Source of the DNA: a virus
Taxonomy: Duplodnaviria > Caudoviricetes
DNA length: 64,000 bases
IMG/VR virus record: IMGVR_UViG_3300015607_004593
Coordinates: 157,971-221,970 of that record
Strand: one strand, 5' to 3'
This document shows positions 17,815-43,570 of this stretch, in pieces; the first letter of the stretch is position 1, and every line of letters begins with the position of its first letter. Below the pieces are notes generated by a model. That model did no database searches. It was not told where the DNA came from and saw only the letters and a program-made list of their open reading frames with translations. The translations under genes were made by a program, and so were the position numbers.

Positions 17815-17912
17815 TTTTTCTTTTTAATTATTTTTATTTGTCTCTATGTATATAGTATAGAGACAAATCAAAAAACAACAATATATTTTTTTATCTTAAA
17901 AACAAGAAAAAC

Positions 17913-18079
17913 AAAAAAGTCTAGGTTTGCCAAAAAATGAATTTTTTTAATTTTTTTCTTGTTTTAATTCAAAGACTTACGAGGGTCATTTTTACGTTTT
18001 TTTAAGGGGTGGTAGTCTAGATACCCCTTTTTTTCAAAATTTTCATTTTTTTAAAAACCTCTTGAAAAACAAAGGGTTA
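17913..18079 (+). repeat. Dispersed intergenic repeat, copy 1
   Basis: AAAAAAGTCTAGGTTTGC...TTCAAAGACTTAC.AGGGTCATTTTTACG...GGTGGTAGTCTAG...TTTTCAAAATTTTCATTTTTTT; near-identical to 37040-37206 (inverted) and 43404-43570. Confidence 0.9.
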
Positions 18080-30407: not shown

Positions 30408-30758
30408 ATGAACAATTTTAATACACTTCAAGATTTTAAAGAGAACAAAAACAAGTTTGAAATTCTCACTCCTCAAGGATTTAAAACATTCAAGGGTTTG
30501 AAGAAAACAAAATCTTCATTTCTCCTATCAATAGAAACATCTTCAGGAAAAGTTTTAAAGGGGTCTTTAGACCATCAAATAAAATTGTATAGAAAAAGGA
30601 AATTTACAAAATTCAAAGATATTAAGGTTGGGGATATGATTTCAAAAGAAGAAAAGGTTTCTTTCATTTCTGTTTCTTCAGGAAAATATGATTTCTTTAC
30701 TGTTCAAAGTGTTGATGGTGAAGAATATTTGATTGAGAATGAATTCATTTCAAAAAAT
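30408..30758 (+). other. Split intein C-terminal half (117 aa, atypical TerL type)
   Basis: EILTPQGFKTFKG, block-B-like SLDH, IKVGD, ends ISKN followed by Cys+1; resembles AceL-TerL/Cat C-inteins. Confidence 0.85.
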
Positions 30759-32978
30759 TGTGCTTTTATTCCTTCAAATATTTTTGATGAATTTTGGTCA
30801 TCTGCAATTCCAACTATTTCATCGGGAACAGAAACAAAAATCATTGTGGTTTCTTGTGTTACAAAAGATACATTTATCTTAGATACCAATCGTGGTCTAT
30901 CTACTATAGAAGATTATATAGATTATACAAAAGAAAATAAGAAACCATATTCTATAGAAGAATATTCTATCCAAGGATTTAATGATTCTCCTTCAAAGGG
31001 AATAACGTTTTTTAATAATGGACTTCACCCTACAATAAAATTAAAGAGTAAGTATTTTGAGTTAGAATGTTCAGAAAATCATCCTCTTTATATTTGTTCT
31101 TCTTCAGGAGAATTTGATTGGAAGAAAGCAAAGGATATTAAAACAGGAGATTATATTTGTGCAAAATATAGGAATAATATTTTTGGAAGTAATGATGTTT
31201 TATCATCTTCAAAAATAACTCTTACTCCTGATATTTGTTATTCATTAGGATTAATAATTTCAGAAGGAATTTTACCTGAAAATAAAGAATATATTCTTCT
31301 TCCTAAAGATATATTAAAAGAATTGAATATTAAGAATGAAGATATTTCTTCAGAACAAAATAAAGAAATCCCAAAGAGATTAATGTCAATTTCTAAAGAA
31401 AATTATTATTCTCTTCTTTATGGTATTTTTGATAGCAAACATTGTCAGATTAAGAATTCAAAGGTTTTTTATTCATCTTATTCAGAAAAAATTATCAATC
31501 AAATAAGAATGATGCTTAATAATTTAGGAGTATTATCTTCAAAATCAAAAGATCAATTTGGTTGTTATACTCTTGAAATTTATCATTGCCTATATCCATT
31601 CATTGTAGAAATAGGGTCAAAATTAAAAAGAAAAGAAGAAGAACTATTTTCTCTTCTTCAAACAAATAAAAAAATAAAGTCAAAAGACGATATAATTCCT
31701 TTTTCTTTTGAACTATTTTACCCTTTCTTTAAAAGAAATAATATAAGAAATTGTCATCCTATCAAAGATAAAAAACATCTTTCAAGATTAGATATTTTAT
31801 TATTCAAAGAACTTTACTATGAAACTATTCCAGAATTGAAAGACTTTTTTGATAAGCATGTTCATAGTAATCTTTTTTGGGATAAGGTTAAAGTCATAAA
31901 AACTTCTTCTTCTGAAACTTTTGATTTTTCTCTTCCTGATAAAGAAAATGATTTTTGGTGTCATTCTGTTCTTTATAACAATATTGTTGGTCATCAGACT
32001 TCAAATGGTTTAAATCATTACTATACACTTTGGAATGATGCTATAGAAAAAAGAAATGGTTTTGCTCCTTTTAAAGTTGATTGGTGGGATGTGCCCGGTA
32101 GGGATGAAGCATGGGCAAAAGAAATGAGGGCAAAGGTAAAGAAATTTGATCAAGAATTTGGAAATGAATTTTTCGGAAGAGAAACATCTGTTATTCCAAC
32201 AGAATTATTAAAGACTTTAACCTACAGGCCACCTATTTCTTCTAATGAAGAAATGAAGATATTTGAATTGCCTCTGAAAAAAAGAAATTACTTAGGGATT
32301 GTTGATGTTGCAGAAGGATTAGGAGGGGATTATTCTGTACTTACTATAATCAAATTACCACAAAAAGAAGATGAACCTTTTGAAGTTGTTTTTACTTTTA
32401 GGTCAAATACTATAGATGTTTTTAAATTTACTGAAGTCATTTTTACATTCTCAAAGAAATACAATGAATGTTATTTGCTTATAGAAATTAATATGATGAA
32501 TGTTGCCGAACCTCTTTATCGAGATTATGAAGTTGAAAATATTATTAAAACAACAACTTCACATCAAAAAATGACAACAACATTTTTTTCGGGTGGGTCA
32601 AAGCTAGGAGTTAAGACTACTGAGATTGTTAAAAAGGTAGGATTAGAGAAATTAAATCAATTGTTTGAAGAAAAGAAATTGATTGTTAATGATTTTACTT
32701 TTATAGAAGAGTTATCAACACTTCAAAAATCAGGAAAAACATTTAAAGCAAGATATGGTTCTTCTGATGATACATCTATGACACTTATTCTTTTTGCATG
32801 GCTCTTGACACAAGAGGGGTTTAAAGAATTATTTGGAATGGAAGAGTTTAAGACAAAGTTAAACAATGAATATCTTGAATCTATCTATTCTACTCTTCCA
32901 TCCTTTTTTATTGAAGATGGTTTAAATGATAATTTAAACCATTTTAAAAATGAAGATAGTATTAACTTGTTTCGTTAG
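30408..32978 (+). CDS. gp17: Terminase large subunit gp17, C-terminal fragment: split-intein C-half, 32-aa extein, cis intein, then ATPase end and nuclease domain
   Basis: CAFIP...FWSSAIPTISSG.ETKIIVVS | TSNGLNHYY, VPGRDE, FDQEF, DVAEGLGGDYS, DD motifs match T4 gp17 from just after Walker B. Confidence 0.93.
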   Translation: MNNFNTLQDFKENKNKFEILTPQGFKTFKGLKKTKSSFLLSIETSSGKVLKGSLDHQIKLYRKRKFTKFKDIKVGDMISKEEKVSFISVSSGKYDFFTVQSVDGEEYLIENEFISKNCAFIPSNIFDEFWSSAIPTISSGTETKIIVVSCVTKDTFILDTNRGLSTIEDYIDYTKENKKPYSIEEYSIQGFNDSPSKGITFFNNGLHPTIKLKSKYFELECSENHPLYICSSSGEFDWKKAKDIKTGDYICAKYRNNIFGSNDVLSSSKITLTPDICYSLGLIISEGILPENKEYILLPKDILKELNIKNEDISSEQNKEIPKRLMSISKENYYSLLYGIFDSKHCQIKNSKVFYSSYSEKIINQIRMMLNNLGVLSSKSKDQFGCYTLEIYHCLYPFIVEIGSKLKRKEEELFSLLQTNKKIKSKDDIIPFSFELFYPFFKRNNIRNCHPIKDKKHLSRLDILLFKELYYETIPELKDFFDKHVHSNLFWDKVKVIKTSSSETFDFSLPDKENDFWCHSVLYNNIVGHQTSNGLNHYYTLWNDAIEKRNGFAPFKVDWWDVPGRDEAWAKEMRAKVKKFDQEFGNEFFGRETSVIPTELLKTLTYRPPISSNEEMKIFELPLKKRNYLGIVDVAEGLGGDYSVLTIIKLPQKEDEPFEVVFTFRSNTIDVFKFTEVIFTFSKKYNECYLLIEINMMNVAEPLYRDYEVENIIKTTTSHQKMTTTFFSGGSKLGVKTTEIVKKVGLEKLNQLFEEKKLIVNDFTFIEELSTLQKSGKTFKARYGSSDDTSMTLILFAWLLTQEGFKELFGMEEFKTKLNNEYLESIYSTLPSFFIEDGLNDNLNHFKNEDSINLFR
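30855..31997 (+). mobile_element. Cis intein (381 aa) with degenerate LAGLIDADG domain, Gln C-terminus
   Basis: Starts CVTKDT, block B CSENHP, LGLIISEG / LYGIFDS, TFDFSL, ends VGHQ before Thr+1; removal restores KIIVVS-TSNG. Confidence 0.9.
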
Positions 32979-33100
32979 AAACGATACCATCTTTCAATGC
33001 TGTTTCTGAAACTTCACGCGCAACATACCGCTTTATTCAAGAGATTTATGATTATTTTTTTAACTCATGATTAGGTTAAGTATGTCGCGCCGTGTTTGAG

Positions 33101-33493
33101 TTAGGAACTAAGTCCGTTCCAATAATTACAAATTTGCCCTGCTCCAAATCTGTAATCTTTACAATCATTACATGCTACACGCCATTCAGGGACGCCTCCA
33201 TCCTCAACCCAATTTGGCGCTCTTGGTAAAAACGTTGTTAAAAGTACATCGGCTATTACATCTTGCCGCGATTGTGCCCATCGTCTAAACGTTTCAACCA
33301 ATAAAATGATTGACCCATCCGATTGTCTCCCAAGTGGTAAACAAGAGTGGGCTAGGGTGGTTCCGCGCCGTCCGCCGATGCTTACTTTAATAGTAAAAAA
33401 TTCTCCACGCAAAACGGCATTTTTGATGGCCGACATTTCAGCCTCGTGGCCTGTAATTAACATCATGTCTCTATCCTTCACTTTGGTTAGCAC
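33101..33493 (-). CDS. Hypothetical protein of foreign composition
   Basis: 130 aa, higher GC than flanks, own promoter. Confidence 0.55.
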   Translation of the reverse strand: MLTKVKDRDMMLITGHEAEMSAIKNAVLRGEFFTIKVSIGGRRGTTLAHSCLPLGRQSDGSIILLVETFRRWAQSRQDVIADVLLTTFLPRAPNWVEDGGVPEWRVACNDCKDYRFGAGQICNYWNGLSS

Positions 33494-33514
33494 CTATCGC
33501 TAACCTTCGTATAT

Positions 33515-33543
33515 ACTATATCAGTATCGTATGTACGATACAA
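33515..33543 (-). promoter_or_regulatory. Sigma70 promoter with overlapping palindromic operator
   Basis: TTGTAT-17-TATAGT; GTATCGTA-TG-TACGATAC at 33524-33541. Confidence 0.65.
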
Positions 33544-33635
33544 GAGGTTTTAAAATATTTTTAGCAAAAGAACATGGTTCTCTATGAAATAATTTCATAA
33601 TTCATAGATTATATATCCTTTTATGATGATTGTAA

Positions 33636-33664
33636 CAAAAAAGCCGCCCTTTACGGACGGCTCA
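33636..33664 (-). terminator. Intrinsic terminator
   Basis: GCCGTCC-GTAAA-GGGCGGC-TTTTTT on the minus strand. Confidence 0.7.
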
Positions 33665-33742
33665 TTATTTCTTCGTGGTTCATCAAGATTTTTCTTGATG
33701 AACAAAAATTCCTCAAAATATTTTTATTCTTACTTTATTTTT

Positions 33743-34774
33743 TCAAAGTAATAAGTTGGAATCCGCGCCTTTTGATGAAGCCGCCCGTTCCCGACGGACG
33801 GCTTCATCAAGTTTTTCGGCCTCGGTTCGCGCTTCAACGGGAGTGCCTAATCGGTGATTAGACAAGTTCATGCTCCCTCCACGCGCAAGCCCCACCTCCC
33901 CGGCGGTTGCAAAGCTCAGGATATTCCGGGCCGCGTTCACGTCGCGGTCATGGCGTGTTCCGCAATCGGGGCACGTCCATTCCCGAACCGAGAGCGGCAT
34001 GGTTTCTCGGTAGCTCCCGCAATGGGAACAGGTCTTACTGGTCGGCGCAAAGCGGTCGGCGATGATGACTTTGCGTCCGTACCACGCCGCTTTGTATTCA
34101 ATCTGCCGCTTGAACTCGCCCATCCCGACATCGGCGATAGCGCCCGCCAAGGCGTGATTCTTCATCATGCCGCACACGTTCAAATCTTCCAGCTCGGCAG
34201 CAATTCGGGCCTGTTCGGCCTCGTGGGCTTGCTGCTCAGCCAGCAAACCCGCCAGCGTTTCAAGTGTTTCGGTTTTCGCGGTTTCAGCGACGGCTAGGAA
34301 CTCCGAGAACTCAACCGCCGTGACGGGAACGGCGCGAACCTTCACCATCAATTCAGCGGTAAAGCTAGGCGGCTTGTTGAACGCCGCCGTCACCGCGCCG
34401 CGCATCGCAGTGATGCGGTTTTGAATCTCCGCAATCCGCGCTTGCTCAGCGCGCTCTTTCGCGGCCCGCTCTTCCGCCTTGCGGGTTTCCTCGGCTTTAA
34501 TCACCGCATCAATCGGTTCCTCAATCGCCAACAGTTCAGCGGTAATCCGTTTCGCTTCCGCATCAATCAAGCGGGTACGCTCCAGCGCCGGGGCTTTGAT
34601 TTCAACTCGAAGTTTCTCCAGTGAAACCCGGTAACTCCGCACTTCGGCGCGGGCCTCGCGGGCCGCGTTCAAACCTTTCGGGGTCGAAACGTCAAACACG
34701 GTGTTGTATTTATTACGAAGCATCGCAATCGCGGCGGCGGTTTCGTTGTATTCGGTAATCTGGTATGCAGTCAT
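33743..34774 (-). CDS. Chimera: prophage-type coiled-coil protein fused in frame to the TnpB C-terminus (RuvC-II, Zn ribbon, RuvC-III)
   Basis: Ala/Glu/Arg-rich helix, then LEDLNVCGMMKNH.LA.AIAD, EYKA.WYG, PTSKTCSHCG, WTCPDCG..HDRDVNAA.NI. Confidence 0.85.
   Translation of the reverse strand: MTAYQITEYNETAAAIAMLRNKYNTVFDVSTPKGLNAAREARAEVRSYRVSLEKLRVEIKAPALERTRLIDAEAKRITAELLAIEEPIDAVIKAEETRKAEERAAKERAEQARIAEIQNRITAMRGAVTAAFNKPPSFTAELMVKVRAVPVTAVEFSEFLAVAETAKTETLETLAGLLAEQQAHEAEQARIAAELEDLNVCGMMKNHALAGAIADVGMGEFKRQIEYKAAWYGRKVIIADRFAPTSKTCSHCGSYRETMPLSVREWTCPDCGTRHDRDVNAARNILSFATAGEVGLARGGSMNLSNHRLGTPVEARTEAEKLDEAVRRERAASSKGADSNLLL
33772..33810 (-). other. Right-end hairpin / omegaRNA 3' stem of the TnpB element
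   Basis: TTGATGAAGCCGTCCGT-CGGGA-ACGGGCGGCTTCATCAA, about 20 nt inside the terminal TTAC. Confidence 0.65.
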
Positions 34775-34817
34775 GGCTCTCTCTCCCAGGTGTGCGCCGT
34801 CCGTGGCGCGGTGTGGG

Positions 34818-35387
34818 TTAATTCACTTGCCGTTCTTCCTGCTCATCGTCGGAATCCTTCTTATCTTTCTTGTGCTCGATAAGCTGGATAACGTCGGCGG
34901 TGCGCGTTAATTGCTTTCGCAATTCAATGATGGCAGGTGCATATTTCCCCTCGTTCGCTACTTCAAACTCGACGGCAAAATACGGCTTGCCTTTCGCCAT
35001 ACTCGTTCGCTTGTTCATCCGTGCCGTAATGACTTTACCGAGTAGGCTTTGCCCTTTCAGCAAATAGGAGCGGCGCAATTCGGCGAAATTGTCCATGCTC
35101 TCGGTTTTGAACAGGATGGAAGATAGAACGCCGTCCGGGTCAATGAACACGATGCCCAGCCAACGCTGCGGCTTGTAGCCGTAGAACTCGCCGTCAAAGA
35201 GGGCGCAACACACCATCTCCATGTCTATCTTGGAACCTCTGAGGATTGTCGAGCCAATCTTGAATTGTCCGACTTGGCAGTCCGGTCGCCATTGCCGCAC
35301 CGAATCCGCGAGAATTTGGCCGGGCTGTAAGGGGGTTACATCCTCAAGGTCTAAATCAACCTCTGGTCTCATGTCTTTTACCCTCAC
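34818..35387 (-). CDS. Cargo hypothetical protein (possible ssDNA-binding/recombination function)
   Basis: GC-rich, translationally coupled; KGKPYFAVEFE and charged tail. Confidence 0.55.
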   Translation of the reverse strand: MRVKDMRPEVDLDLEDVTPLQPGQILADSVRQWRPDCQVGQFKIGSTILRGSKIDMEMVCCALFDGEFYGYKPQRWLGIVFIDPDGVLSSILFKTESMDNFAELRRSYLLKGQSLLGKVITARMNKRTSMAKGKPYFAVEFEVANEGKYAPAIIELRKQLTRTADVIQLIEHKKDKKDSDDEQEERQVN

Positions 35388-35587
35388 GAATTCATTTCAA
35401 CGGCTTCAAAGTCCCACGGCTCCATAGCGTGAAAGCCGTTCCTCATGAAGCGATCCCGTGCGGCTTCTTCGGCAAGCCATTCGGAACCTTCGTGACTGGA
35501 TAGCCACGCATGAAACGCGGCGCGGTCGGCATCCTCGGCAGCCCAAAGGCTCGCGAGAGCTTGCGGTGTTTGCGGTGTTTGTTGCAT
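35384..35587 (-). CDS. Cargo hypothetical protein
   Basis: 67 aa, AGGA RBS, overlaps next start. Confidence 0.5.
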   Translation of the reverse strand: MQQTPQTPQALASLWAAEDADRAAFHAWLSSHEGSEWLAEEAARDRFMRNGFHAMEPWDFEAVEMNS

Positions 35588-35655
35588 GATGTGATTCCTG
35601 TTGATTGGGTTTGCTGGCCGCTCTCGTTGCTAGTAACAACGAGAGCGGTTTTCTT

Positions 35656-35943
35656 TTAGGCGACACGCCGCCAGCGTTCTTTTCTTTCGTCCTCTGCTTT
35701 CGCCCGTTCGTCGGCTCGTATCTCGTTGGCGATGGCATCCATCTGTTCATCGTCCATCATGGAAATCATGTCCAGCTTGATGATTTCGATGTGCGGTTTG
35801 TATTCGCCTTGTGCATTGTAGTAATGCTTGATGCCCCGCGTGATGGAGACGGACTGAATATCTATTTCATCGTCAATCCAATCCCATTCGACGATTGCTT
35901 TATAAAGGGCACCGTAAAACTCCATCTCGGTTTCAAAGGACAT
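35656..35943 (-). CDS. Cargo hypothetical protein
   Basis: 95 aa, AGGAGG RBS. Confidence 0.55.
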   Translation of the reverse strand: MSFETEMEFYGALYKAIVEWDWIDDEIDIQSVSITRGIKHYYNAQGEYKPHIEIIKLDMISMMDDEQMDAIANEIRADERAKAEDERKERWRRVA

Positions 35944-36394
35944 ACTCGCCTCCTAGAAGTGAAAGAACGGTTGATTGCTCCCTGATTGCGCGTCGGTTTC
36001 TCCCTTTTACGCCGCCGCTATAGGTGCTTTTGATATGGCGTTGATCGAGTTGATAGCGAACCGCTTGCTTGTCCCCCTTCGATTTGAAGCGTGGATACTT
36101 GCCGCGCTTTTCAAAGAAGTTTTTGAACGCCTTGTCTTGATCTATCAGGGCTTGGATCAAGCATCCGGCGGTTGCATCGGAAAGCCATGGGAAGTCCGTT
36201 TTCTTCCAAACCGTCACTTGCCGTCCGAGAGAAACGTAGTTGTGCTTCTCTTGGCGTTCTTTCCAAGCCGTGCTTCGCAACTCCAAACAGCGGTTCCAGA
36301 CAAAACGCACACAACCGAATTCCACCGCAAGTTGATGACGCTGTTCGGCGTTGGGGTAGATGCGGAATTTGTAGGATTTCTGTTGAGTGATCAT
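35933..36394 (-). pseudogene. tnpB: TnpB N-terminal fragment (HTH/REC), truncated near 36010
   Basis: KSYKFRIYPNAEQ, FGCVRFVWN, PWL, AFKNFF...YPRFKSK; promoter TTGCAT-17-TAATAT at 36402-36430. Confidence 0.85.
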
Positions 36395-36467
36395 GTGTGC
36401 TATATTAACTAACCCTTCGTTAATATGCAAGCGAAAATTCGCCATGAAAAACCGAGGAGAAGAGACT

Positions 36468-36795
36468 GTAACCCTTTATCAAAAACATCATCTAAAAGAT
36501 GATGTTTTTCCTTTTGTGTTTTCTTTCGTCAAAGAAGAAGAAATGATGTCTACCTCTCCTGAATAAGAGGAAATTTAAATAGTTTCTGTTTTAAACAAAA
36601 GTGTCTTAGATAGAATAGATTGAAGTTTAGAAGAAAACATCATTCCACCTTGAAGGATAGTTACAAACAAAAAATCTTCTTTTTCTCTTTTTTTGTAGCT
36701 AAAGAATAGATTATTTCTTTAACAAGTAATTCTGAAAATAAAACTTGTGAATTTCCATACATTTCTTGAAATTTTAATTGAGATAATTTAGGCAT
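36468..36795 (-). pseudogene. Decayed purine phosphoribosyltransferase (Hpt-like) interrupted by the TnpB element
   Basis: Across frameshifts and a stop: FLFVTILQGGMMFSSKL...ISSYSGEVDII...KGK...LDDVFDKG; continues VTLKK beyond the far element end (~33747). Confidence 0.6.
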
Positions 36796-37036
36796 GGTAA
36801 GGAAGTAGTTTTTGTTGTTCAGGAAAAGAATCAAGTGGGGGAAAGAATTTTTTGAAAGCTACAGAAAACGATGAAAAGAGTTGTATTTTTTCTTTGCAAT
36901 GAAAGCATTGGCATACAGTTTCCATTCTTTCTGATAAGTCATCATTTGTTCTTGTAGTCCTTTGACATGAAGAACATTTGATATGCCACAAAAAACCACC
37001 TTGAATATTTTCTACAGAAATCGTTCCGAATGACAT
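36788..37036 (-). CDS. Small Zn-finger protein
   Basis: CSSC...CQCFHC. Confidence 0.5.
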   Translation of the reverse strand: MSFGTISVENIQGGFLWHIKCSSCQRTTRTNDDLSERMETVCQCFHCKEKIQLFSSFSVAFKKFFPPLDSFPEQQKLLPYHA

Positions 37037-37039
37037 TTT

Positions 37040-37206
37040 TAACCCTTTGTTTTTAAAACGAAAATTAAAAAAATGAAAATTTTGAAAAAAAAGAGTACCT
37101 AGACTACCACCCCTTAAAAAAACGTAAAAATGACCCTTGTAACTCTTTGAATTAAAACAAGAAAAAAATTAAAAAAATTCATTTTTTGGCAAACCTAGAC
37201 TTTTTT
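37040..37206 (-). repeat. Dispersed intergenic repeat, copy 2 (inverted)
   Basis: Reverse complement matches 17913-18079; lies directly downstream of the gp17 N-fragment. Confidence 0.9.
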
Positions 37207-37225
37207 ATTTTTCTCCTCCTTTGTC

Positions 37226-37594
37226 TTAATTTTCAGTTAATGAAAGTAACAATCTCTCATAGAGTTCAGAAATTAAAATTTCTTTTTCAATTCCTTCATC
37301 ATCTTTGATAGTAATTTTAGTTTCACCTGAAACACATTTTCCCGTTTGACGAGAAGAAAGAATAATAGAATGTCTATTATCATTTAAATGATTCAACATT
37401 CTTTTTTGATAATCATAAAGTTCTATAGAAATAAGACCTTTATCGGGATGAACAACCTTTATATAATTCTGAACAAAGTAAGTAACATCATTAGCACATT
37501 TTATATATTCTTGAATTTCCTCTTTAGTATATTCATGATATACATTATGTTTTTTTAAATCTAAATTACCTTTATAGTTTTCATTTATAGGCAT
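37226..37594 (-). CDS. gp17: Terminase large subunit gp17, N-terminal fragment, plus 36-aa split N-intein
   Basis: YKGN..LKK, EYIKC..D..YF..NYIKVV..DKGL, LYDYQ (Q motif), Walker A SRQTGK, then CVSGETKITIKDDEGIEKEILISELYERL*. Confidence 0.93.
   Translation of the reverse strand: MPINENYKGNLDLKKHNVYHEYTKEEIQEYIKCANDVTYFVQNYIKVVHPDKGLISIELYDYQKRMLNHLNDNRHSIILSSRQTGKCVSGETKITIKDDEGIEKEILISELYERLLLSLTEN
37229..37336 (-). other. Split intein N-terminal half (36 aa, atypically short)
   Basis: Cys1 block A CVSGET.I, I.ISELYERL, then stop. Confidence 0.88.
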
Positions 37595-42780: not shown

Positions 42781-43404
42781 ATGAGTCTTTATAAGCAATT
42801 TAAAGAATTTTTAAATGAAGCTAGGTCAGATTCTATTGTGTATGTAAGTAAAACTAAAGCGGGAAAGAAAACAGACGACCCTTCAAAAATTGTAAAAGTT
42901 GAAGGAGAATTATATCCCTCAAGAGGAATCGTTGAATATGATGCTCTATCAGAAATAGCAATCTTACTTGAAGAACAAAAATAACTTTCTATAAAACTTG
43001 AGAAAGCGAAAGAAGATGTAAGAGTTTACATGGAAGATTTATTTGATCTTCAAGATAAACTTTATACAAGAGTTTTGAAAATAACAAGAATTCATAATAA
43101 TGTTGTTTCTGAATTGAAAGTTACTATGACTAAAGAAACAGAAAGAACATCTATTGATTACAAGGCATTTATTAATGAATTGAAAGAAACATTTGTTGAA
43201 TTATCTGTAGATATAGATATTCTTTTGAATAAGTATACATCTATTACAAAAATTGCAGCGGGAATAAGAATGGAATTAAATGAATTAAATGAGTCAATTG
43301 TTTCAACTATAAAAGCATCATTCAAAAAATTAATTTCATACTTTGAAGGTAGATTTAAATTGTATGATAAGTTTATCAACAAGTATAAAAAATATGAAAA
43401 ATAA
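42781..43404 (+). pseudogene. Candidate internal head protein gene interrupted by one in-frame TAA (42982-42984)
   Basis: The 67-aa and 124-aa ORFs share a frame and the linker is open (LSIKLEKAKEDVRVY); N-terminus KQFKEFLNE. Confidence 0.65.
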
Positions 43405-43570
43405 AAAAAGTCTAGGTTTGCTAAAAAATGAATTTTTTTAATTTTTTTATTGTTTTAATTCAAAGACTTACAAGGGTCATTTTTACGTTTTTTTACGAGG
43501 TGGTAGTCTAGGTACTCTTTTTTTTCAAAATTTTCATTTTTTTGAAAAGATGTTTAAAAACAAGTATTTA
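43404..43570 (+). repeat. Dispersed intergenic repeat, copy 3
   Basis: Matches 17913-18079 with a few substitutions. Confidence 0.9.

Follow-up and report, generated by a model that had tools for sequence, protein, structure and literature searches.

How does a block of GC-rich DNA from temperate phages come to lie in the AT-rich genome of a T4-like and presumably lytic phage, and can it still move? The question is raised by a 2.7-kb island in a virus record of 221,970 bp (Caudoviricetes; IMG/VR record IMGVR_UViG_3300015607_004593; CheckV completeness 100%), the last 64 kb of which (64,000 nucleotides, record positions 157,971 to 221,970; hereafter the window, whose coordinates are used below) were analyzed. 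The island spans positions 33756-36468 and has a GC content of 54%, versus 27-28% in both flanks and 28.6% in the genome as a whole. Comparison with relatives supports its description as an element of the IS200/IS605 insertion sequence family with an ISDra2-like tnpB gene, the middle of which has been replaced by early genes of a temperate phage. A first-pass annotation, made from the sequence alone, had recognized the GC-rich island in its AT-rich genome, with coordinates 1-8 nt off the true junctions, and had read it as an IS608-type transposon shell that was converted into a carrier of prophage-like genes. The explanation that best accounts for the whole of the evidence, with a probability of roughly 0.5, is that the island was acquired horizontally and is now an immobile relic, not an active transposon. 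That it entered by one-ended capture, with cleavage of the fragment at the element's right end and microhomology joining at its other side, is given even odds or slightly less.

The island is real and present in many assemblies. The identical arrangement, at 99.0-100% identity, is found in at least eight contigs that cross the left junction and seven that cross the right. These junction-spanning contigs derive from ENA, Logan, and JGI assemblies (series ERZ27282xxx, ERZ27284530, ERZ17988280, SRR68375xx, SRR6846451, JGI 3300008807, and JGI 3300015608) produced with several assemblers (MEGAHIT k141, SPAdes NODE), and their flanks are invariant. The phage is present in sequencing runs such as SRR6837557, SRR6837571, SRR6837577, SRR6846451, and SRR12022143 and in those behind the ERZ27282xxx assemblies. 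Alignment with the contigs of relatives (designated L, with proteins designated P) fixes the anatomy of the island, its two parents, and the positions of its four junctions, which are given here in the order in which the minus strand reads them:

36469..36795, minus strand: left flank, a frameshifted phosphoribosyltransferase-like pseudogene of the phage, cut after the PRPP motif LDDVFDKGL
36444..36468, plus strand: remnant of a divergent ribbon-helix-helix-like gene, first 8 codons (MKNRGEET), aligned with the upstream regions of L008, L009, L012, and L044
36395..36443, minus strand: promoter/operator-like region upstream of tnpB, with an imperfect palindrome ATTAACGAAGGGTTAGTTAAT (36424->36404) that may serve as an operator; 92.7% identical to L009 over 36449-36395
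36010..36394, minus strand: 5' part of tnpB, codons 1-128, HTH/REC (Pfam); 93-95% nucleotide identity to L008 1831-2215
36003..36010, minus strand: left inner junction (tnpB 5' part to cargo), approximate position, with 7-8 nt of microhomology, CGGCGGCG
34194..36009, minus strand: replacement segment of 1816 bp, a temperate-phage early operon; 98.5% identical to L007
35943->35656, minus strand: gene c95
35587->35384, minus strand: gene c67
35372->34818, minus strand: gene c184, resembling Pam3_Gp34-like clusters (a lead)
from 34774, minus strand: first ~197 codons of a 333-aa DUF1351-like gene
34181..34193, minus strand: right inner junction (cargo to tnpB 3' part), with an imperfect 13-nt microhomology, gcNGGAAGANTTG
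33756..34193, minus strand: 3' part of tnpB (RuvC-II Glu, zinc finger, RuvC-III Asp) with the omega-RNA/right-end region; 94% nucleotide identity to L008 2637-3074
33811->33772, minus strand: subterminal right-end hairpin of 16 pairs, one of two hairpins in the structure formed by the last 120 nt
33756..33764, minus strand: element terminus, ...GGATTCCAA, with the right junction between 33756 and 33755
33730..33755, minus strand: right flank, in phage DNA, the end of a 172-aa gene with its final 8 codons and stop (..SYYFEKIK*)

Both ends of the island carry tnpB sequence. The open reading frame (ORF) 36445->35933 matches HTH_OrfB_IS605 in Pfam (E 7e-19), and the ORF 34774->33743 contains Cas12f1-like_TNB (Pfam; E 3e-26) at residues 219-285, behind an N-terminus that resembles DUF1351 and PHROG-16469. 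The retained parts measure 385 nt (5') and 438 nt (3'), and the 421 nt between them are missing. Alignment with intact relatives demonstrates that the RuvC-I motif GLDLG has been lost, and that LEDLN (RuvC-II), the CxxC...CxxC zinc finger, and HDRD (RuvC-III) are retained. The gene is thus no intact TnpB, since the N-terminal 128 and the C-terminal ~139 codons are kept and codons ~129-268, including RuvC-I, are replaced. The stop codon has also been lost (ancestral GTAA to TTCA), and the frame reads through to 33743. Intact relatives recovered by protein search are 406-452 aa long and 82-94% identical to the C-terminal part; one of them (P0007) matches the ISDra2 TnpB structures over its whole length (E 1e-72). 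These relatives are found in temperate-phage genomes, beside lysozyme, terminase, or RecT genes. The closest DNA in cultured phages and plasmids consists of short tnpB matches only, at 67-82% identity. An insertion sequence from an E. coli cloning host was considered as a source and rejected, with zero matches in 5,426 E. coli genomes.

The segment between the two parts of tnpB has its own parent. The cargo is 98.5% identical to L007 over 1702 nt (35881->34181), as far as L007 reaches into it, and L007 then carries the remainder of the 333-aa gene, followed by genes for a RecE-like exonuclease (DUF3799), an HNH protein, an excisionase, and an integrase. This near-identity, together with the synteny with excisionase and integrase, identifies the cargo as part of a temperate-phage early (recombination) operon. 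The 333-aa protein (P0002) is 99% identical to the N-terminal part of the ORF 34774->33743, and c95, c67, and c184 have no family in Pfam, PHROGs, or NCBIfam. Several proposals of the first-pass annotation are therefore borne out by Pfam, alignment, and L007: the coding sequence for the TnpB HTH lies at one end and RuvC-II, zinc finger, and RuvC-III at the other; the RuvC-I-containing middle has been replaced by co-oriented genes (421 nt by 1816 bp); these genes belong to a temperate-phage early operon; and the intact parent insertion sequence that it recommended searching for exists, as L008 (93-95% in tnpB).

Both inner junctions lie on microhomologies. The left one, placed by aligning the window with L044, L008, and L045, is also present outside the phage: in the GC-rich contig L044 (run SRR6837577), which keeps the regulator gene, it lies at the same tnpB position, the first 460 nt of cargo match the window at 100%, and the identity in tnpB is 72-95%. 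L045 represents the native, tnpB-free upstream context of the cargo. At the right inner junction, the homologies to L007 and L008 overlap by 13 nt (34193-34181), and the result is an in-frame fusion of a DUF1351-like N-terminus with a TnpB C-terminus in the 343-aa ORF 34774->33743. This fusion protein (P0001) was seen only on contigs of this phage in the protein search. Patterns drawn from the inner junctions gave 0 matches in collections of metagenome and genome contigs, where records near the window may have been masked.

The right outer junction coincides with the end of the element to the nucleotide. Five contexts (L008, L009, L010/11, L012/13, and L062, the last a contig of Candidatus Competibacter denitrificans) all finish in ...GGCGCGGATTCCAA and then diverge, at the position that corresponds to 33756 in the window. 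Preceding this common terminus is the subterminal hairpin, which the first-pass annotation had given as 17 bp and which is confirmed here as 16 pairs conserved in relatives; the two-hairpin structure to which it belongs comprises 39 pairs, 11 of them with compensatory changes (RNAalifold, six family members). On the other side of the junction, the phage relative L050 is 98.1% identical over 4157 nt, with the match beginning exactly at 33755. L050 contains the intact 172-aa gene, the first 164 codons of which are missing from the window, and its bases at the junction (CT TAT TAC TTT GAA AAA ATA AAG TAA) are the last codons of this AT-rich gene. All three members of the 172-aa family share the C-terminus HSYYFE(K/R)xK and read there ..CAT TCT TAT TAC... 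The un-inserted allele in L050 is consequently ...GGAGAACATT|CTTATTAC, i.e., ...GAACATT|, with neither TTGAAG nor a target duplication, so that the element does not stand directly 3' of a target motif at its right junction in the manner of a canonical insertion.

Two further observations concern this flank. Within its first 3072 nt, at 35-44% GC, L050 encodes a tail protein of 258 aa, a virion protein of 85 aa, and a fragment of a tape-measure protein in addition to the intact 172-aa gene. None of these genes has a homologue in the genome studied here, which indicates either strong local mosaicism or a chimeric contig. Within the phage DNA, a terminator GAGCCGTCCGTAAAGGGCGGCTTTTTT (33641-33663, minus strand) has the same 7-bp stem, including a G-T pair, as the right-end hairpin 100 nt upstream (local alignment score 40, versus a shuffle maximum of 27). 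This terminator is also present in L050 and so predates the island; the resemblance may be coincidence or may reflect site preference. A second element relic in the flank, suggested by the 12-mer CTTGTATCGTAC and the terminator stem, was rejected because the similarity to whole elements is not above that of shuffled sequences.

The left outer junction is of a different kind. In intact relatives, a small gene of 56-57 aa sits between the left end and tnpB, and the left end itself lies ~350 nt upstream of tnpB, with TTGAAG at its boundary in all four contexts (L008, L009, L012, and L062). In one of these contexts (L009:2300-2662), the intact element is inserted, in opposite orientation, in the 3' part of another tnpB that is 69% identical, and the TTGAAG flank appears to belong to that older, interrupted gene. 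Of the family's left region, ~75 nt remain in the window (~50 nt next to tnpB plus ~8 codons of the small gene); the genome lacks the remainder altogether, so that no hairpin end beside a conserved target motif is found. What adjoins is the phosphoribosyltransferase pseudogene, the N-terminus of which had been called as a 44-aa ORF: in a tblastn search with the 193-aa Pribosyltran protein of L072, residues 13-37, 45-103, and 113-122 match three frames of 36771->36469 (E 4e-8). Either parent could have supplied bases 36469-36476 (which also encode TVTL of the small gene), and this junction may therefore rest on a microhomology of up to 8 nt. The phosphoribosyltransferase gene directly precedes the 172-aa gene in L072, and by analogy the island would have replaced ~0.7 kb of phage DNA.

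These ends bear directly on mobility. The left end is absent from both the island and the genome, which leaves an element without one of the two ends that TnpA needs. Y1 TnpA (PF01797) has no match at E<=1 in the whole 221,970-bp genome, as the first-pass annotation had noted for the island, and there is no second TnpB in the 222 kb. With left end, TnpA, and intact TnpB all missing, the relic can presumably neither transpose nor home. Copies with the same ends in another context were absent from the collections searched, in which all copies share the same phage context, and a hunt for empty sites or extra copies with flank patterns in viral contigs gave 0 matches, with the proviso that records near the window may have been masked. 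The missing left end and the lack of a second copy elsewhere also set the island apart from non-autonomous derivatives of the PATE or MITE type and from cargo-carrying transposons.

The following course of events is proposed for the relic. The donor would have been a temperate phage of a GC-rich, probably gammaproteobacterial host that carried an ISDra2-like insertion sequence with tnpB only, laid out as a left end by TTGAAG, a divergent ribbon-helix-helix gene, and tnpB with its 3' guide-RNA/right end and terminus ...GGATTCCAA. In the GC-rich gene pool, microhomology recombination would have joined tnpB codons 1-128 to the early operon of that same phage (c95-c67-c184-DUF1351-like gene). A second microhomology joint would then have fused the DUF1351-like gene, broken off in its middle, to codon ~269 of tnpB, destroying RuvC-I and creating the in-frame fusion ORF, either before or after entry into the T4-like phage. 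At entry, a fragment bounded by codon ~8 of the regulator on one side and by the precise right terminus of the element on the other would have taken the place of ~0.7 kb of the T4-like phage. The phage would thereby have lost the 3' third of the phosphoribosyltransferase-like gene and 164 codons from the start of the gene after it. The right junction would stem from a DNA end cut at the terminus by transposase-type cleavage in the donor cell, and the left junction from ordinary illegitimate joining with up to 8 nt of microhomology. In its present state, the relic is fixed in the phage lineage, and expression of its three intact small genes as passengers is possible.

That the right junction is exact favors a DNA end produced by the element's transposition chemistry; illegitimate joining would, by a rough estimate, come within 1 nt of the terminus in less than about 1% of cases. 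Both the missing left end and a target without the family's flank motif speak against a simple canonical insertion. Several points weigh against the proposed origin. The entry chemistry is deduced from its products, and canonical insertion followed by deletions is an alternative. The TTGAAG target motif is taken from four contexts and from analogy with ISDra2 (TTGAT). The ancestral left side is deduced from the more distant L072 (70% protein identity), since L050 differs to the left of 33755, where it carries tail and tape-measure genes that the present genome lacks. The right inner junction has been seen only in this phage, although the GC-rich contigs able to show it are very short. Junction support consists of assembled contigs, several of which may come from one project, and that the cargo may be expressed or useful is conjecture.

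Among the alternatives, the one that survives best is that a complete element was inserted canonically by a TnpA acting in trans, and that later deletions removed the left end and phage DNA (if needed, also next to the right end). An exact right junction is what transposition gives, and the additional decay of the phosphoribosyltransferase gene (at least two frameshifts) indicates that there was time for secondary deletions. However, the un-inserted allele lacks TTGAAG before the right junction, with all three members of the 172-aa family in agreement, and this route requires a second, precisely end-anchored deletion, whereas a single replacement takes fewer steps. Canonical insertion with subsequent decay is thus considered rather unlikely.

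A second alternative concerns the retention of the island more than its origin and is compatible with the relic reading, namely that the island is a moron-like passenger module in which c95, c67, and c184 or the DUF1351-TnpB fusion benefit the phage (e.g., in recombination or superinfection conflicts) and the insertion sequence parts are incidental. The three small ORFs are intact in all copies, where they vary only in allelic, in-frame blocks; the island is fixed across datasets; and the native operon is a recombination module (RecE-like exonuclease, possible Pam3_Gp34-like protein). On the other hand, the key recombination genes (the exonuclease and the full DUF1351-like protein) were not transferred, and c95, c67, and c184 have no family assignment. 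Such a benefit to the phage seems improbable as the explanation.

Far less probable is the reading of the first-pass annotation, in which an IS608-type shell with both ends intact inserts 3' of TTAC and carries prophage genes when mobilized in trans. Both tnpB halves and the right-end hairpin are present, and TTAC does occur near both junctions, but it occurs once per 218 nt on this strand. The left TTAC (36471-36468) abuts its junction as claimed, yet its TTA (36471-36469) is the Leu codon of LDDVFDKGL and what adjoins it is not the family's left end. The right TTAC (33751-33748) lies 4-7 nt outside the terminus at 33756, in the codons TAT TAC (Tyr-Tyr) of the phage gene. Comparison with the parent puts the ends elsewhere, with the left end beside TTGAAG and missing here and the right end at 33756, an outcome that the annotation itself had named as speaking against a TTAC-targeted insertion. 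A carrier mobilized in trans is likewise not sustained, since one of the two ends needed by TnpA is missing and a second copy with these ends was not found in the collections searched. Neither was cargo loaded between two functional ends: tnpB DNA was replaced through two microhomology junctions inside the gene, one of them shared with a non-phage context. What does hold is that prophage-like genes have entered a presumably lytic phage, given the temperate-phage early genes in a T4-like genome. An assembly chimera, in which GC-rich bacterial or prophage reads were misjoined into an AT-rich phage contig, fits the extreme GC contrast, the repeated nature of tnpB in these metagenomes (short contigs break within it), and the clustered variant patches described below, which could be assembler path switches, but is the least credible reading of all because each junction is found in 7-8 contigs, assembled by different programs from different datasets and with invariant flanks, and because both fall within recognizable truncated phage genes.

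As a decayed insertion sequence fragment and as a horizontally acquired island, the locus is of a kind already known; its GC contrast and chimeric content are unusual. Among the nearest known systems is ISDra2 of Deinococcus radiodurans (IS200/IS605; TnpB with a right-end guide RNA; PDB 8H1J, 8EXA), which the intact relative P0007 matches over its whole length. In both, the structured, conserved 3' region stops at the element terminus, and the left-flank TTGAAG resembles TTGAT, the target motif of ISDra2. Unlike ISDra2, the present copy lacks codons ~129-268 (RuvC-I), the left end, and TnpA, and its intact relatives have a small divergent ribbon-helix-helix gene in place of tnpA. Elements with tnpB are common in phages, with TnpB homologues in 427 phage records; an example with tnpB only (IS1341-type) is GipA of Gifsy-1, at 47% identity, and the intact relatives of the island likewise reside in temperate-phage genomes; those, however, are whole genes of matching base composition, whereas here a broken copy sits in a phage 25 GC points poorer. 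Morons and microhomology recombination are familiar features of plasticity regions in phage genomes. The island resembles the products of microhomology-mediated or homology-facilitated illegitimate recombination in that three of its four junctions lie on 7-13 nt microhomologies, and resembles morons in that foreign DNA replaces resident genes, with hairpin terminators on either side. It differs in that one junction is a transposon terminus to the nucleotide, which plain illegitimate recombination does not predict.

The variation of the island among phage strains is confined to clustered blocks, and the flanks are invariant. L006 has 13 differences in c95, and L040 and L041 (two datasets and two assemblers) have 24 differences in c67. 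The c67 block is the allele of the GC-rich L044, and two c95 variants are the L007 allele. These patches look like gene conversion with a GC-rich phage pool and hint at repeated co-residence in one host, with the caveat that assemblers may have switched paths. The only named relatives of the donor are Candidatus Competibacter and Competibacteraceae (65-78% protein identity), and the nearest cultured relatives are Pseudomonas temperate phages (45-49%). The Candidatus Competibacter names alone suggest a habitat of the activated-sludge type. The expectation of the first-pass annotation that the cargo should identify the host holds in part: the relatives point to a donor lineage, but the step from donor to host is a lead from sequence comparison. 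It is conceivable, if doubtful, that this T4-like jumbo phage of 28.6% GC shares cells with ~54% GC temperate phages of Competibacteraceae-like Gammaproteobacteria and that recombination with resident prophages has gone on after the capture.

The surroundings of the island are those of a 222-kb T4-like phage, with UvsY, a gp19-type tail tube, an Rnl1-type RNA ligase, ThyX, PurM, and a terminase of the gp17 type that inteins interrupt. The large terminase is split into convergent pieces 4.2 kb apart (37226-37594, minus strand; 30408-32978, plus strand) with the island between them. The N-piece terminates in an intein start of ~36 aa, and the C-piece begins with an intein end and contains a second, complete intein with a LAGLIDADG domain. 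In L050 the C-piece is not followed by the N-piece, and the halves are thus not linked in position; relatives of the N-fragment in IMG/VR are only ~50% identical and offer no comparable locus. Outside the left edge, L060 (ERZ27282887) and L061 (ERZ17987011), from different datasets and assemblers, both stop at exactly 36551, 83 nt from the island; no genomic repeat accounts for this break, which may mark a branch to a co-existing haplotype.

On the other side, a patch of 44% GC (33100-33500) contains an orphan 121/130-aa ORF with no homologue besides itself among 5.8 billion proteins and no Rfam match, and has a folding z of about -2 on both strands. It is present in the island-less L050 with two differences, both synonymous, and is the phage's own DNA; neither the patch nor the flank 33755-33500 was accepted as part of the island, since L050 has both at 98-100% without it. 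The sole other GC-rich stretch of the genome (genome positions 130201-131551, outside the window) was rejected as a second island, being a Pro/Thr-rich repeat inside a structural gene and not foreign DNA. An intergenic repeat of ~150-180 bp, with at least eight genome copies at 88-96% identity (37030-37213, 43396-43543, 17905-18079, and five more outside the window), recalls the mobile promoter/stem-loop cassettes known from T4-type phages. Rfam gave no match in 32800-37300 at gathering or relaxed thresholds, and no tRNA genes were found in a tRNA scan.

The analysis removes a tempting reading, and passenger-carrying IS200/IS605 transposons remain unshown at this locus. In its place stands a base-by-base record of how a presumably lytic T4-like phage gained unrelated temperate-phage DNA at the price of two destroyed phage genes. 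If the proposed origin is correct, a transposase-cut end of an insertion sequence can serve in the one-ended capture of prophage genes by a lytic phage. If the phage does share cells with the GC-rich temperate phages, its host would be a GC-rich bacterium, and the gap in GC content between phage and host would be unusually large. The ecological value of the island, together with its allele patches, lies in a testable host lead for an uncultured jumbo phage.

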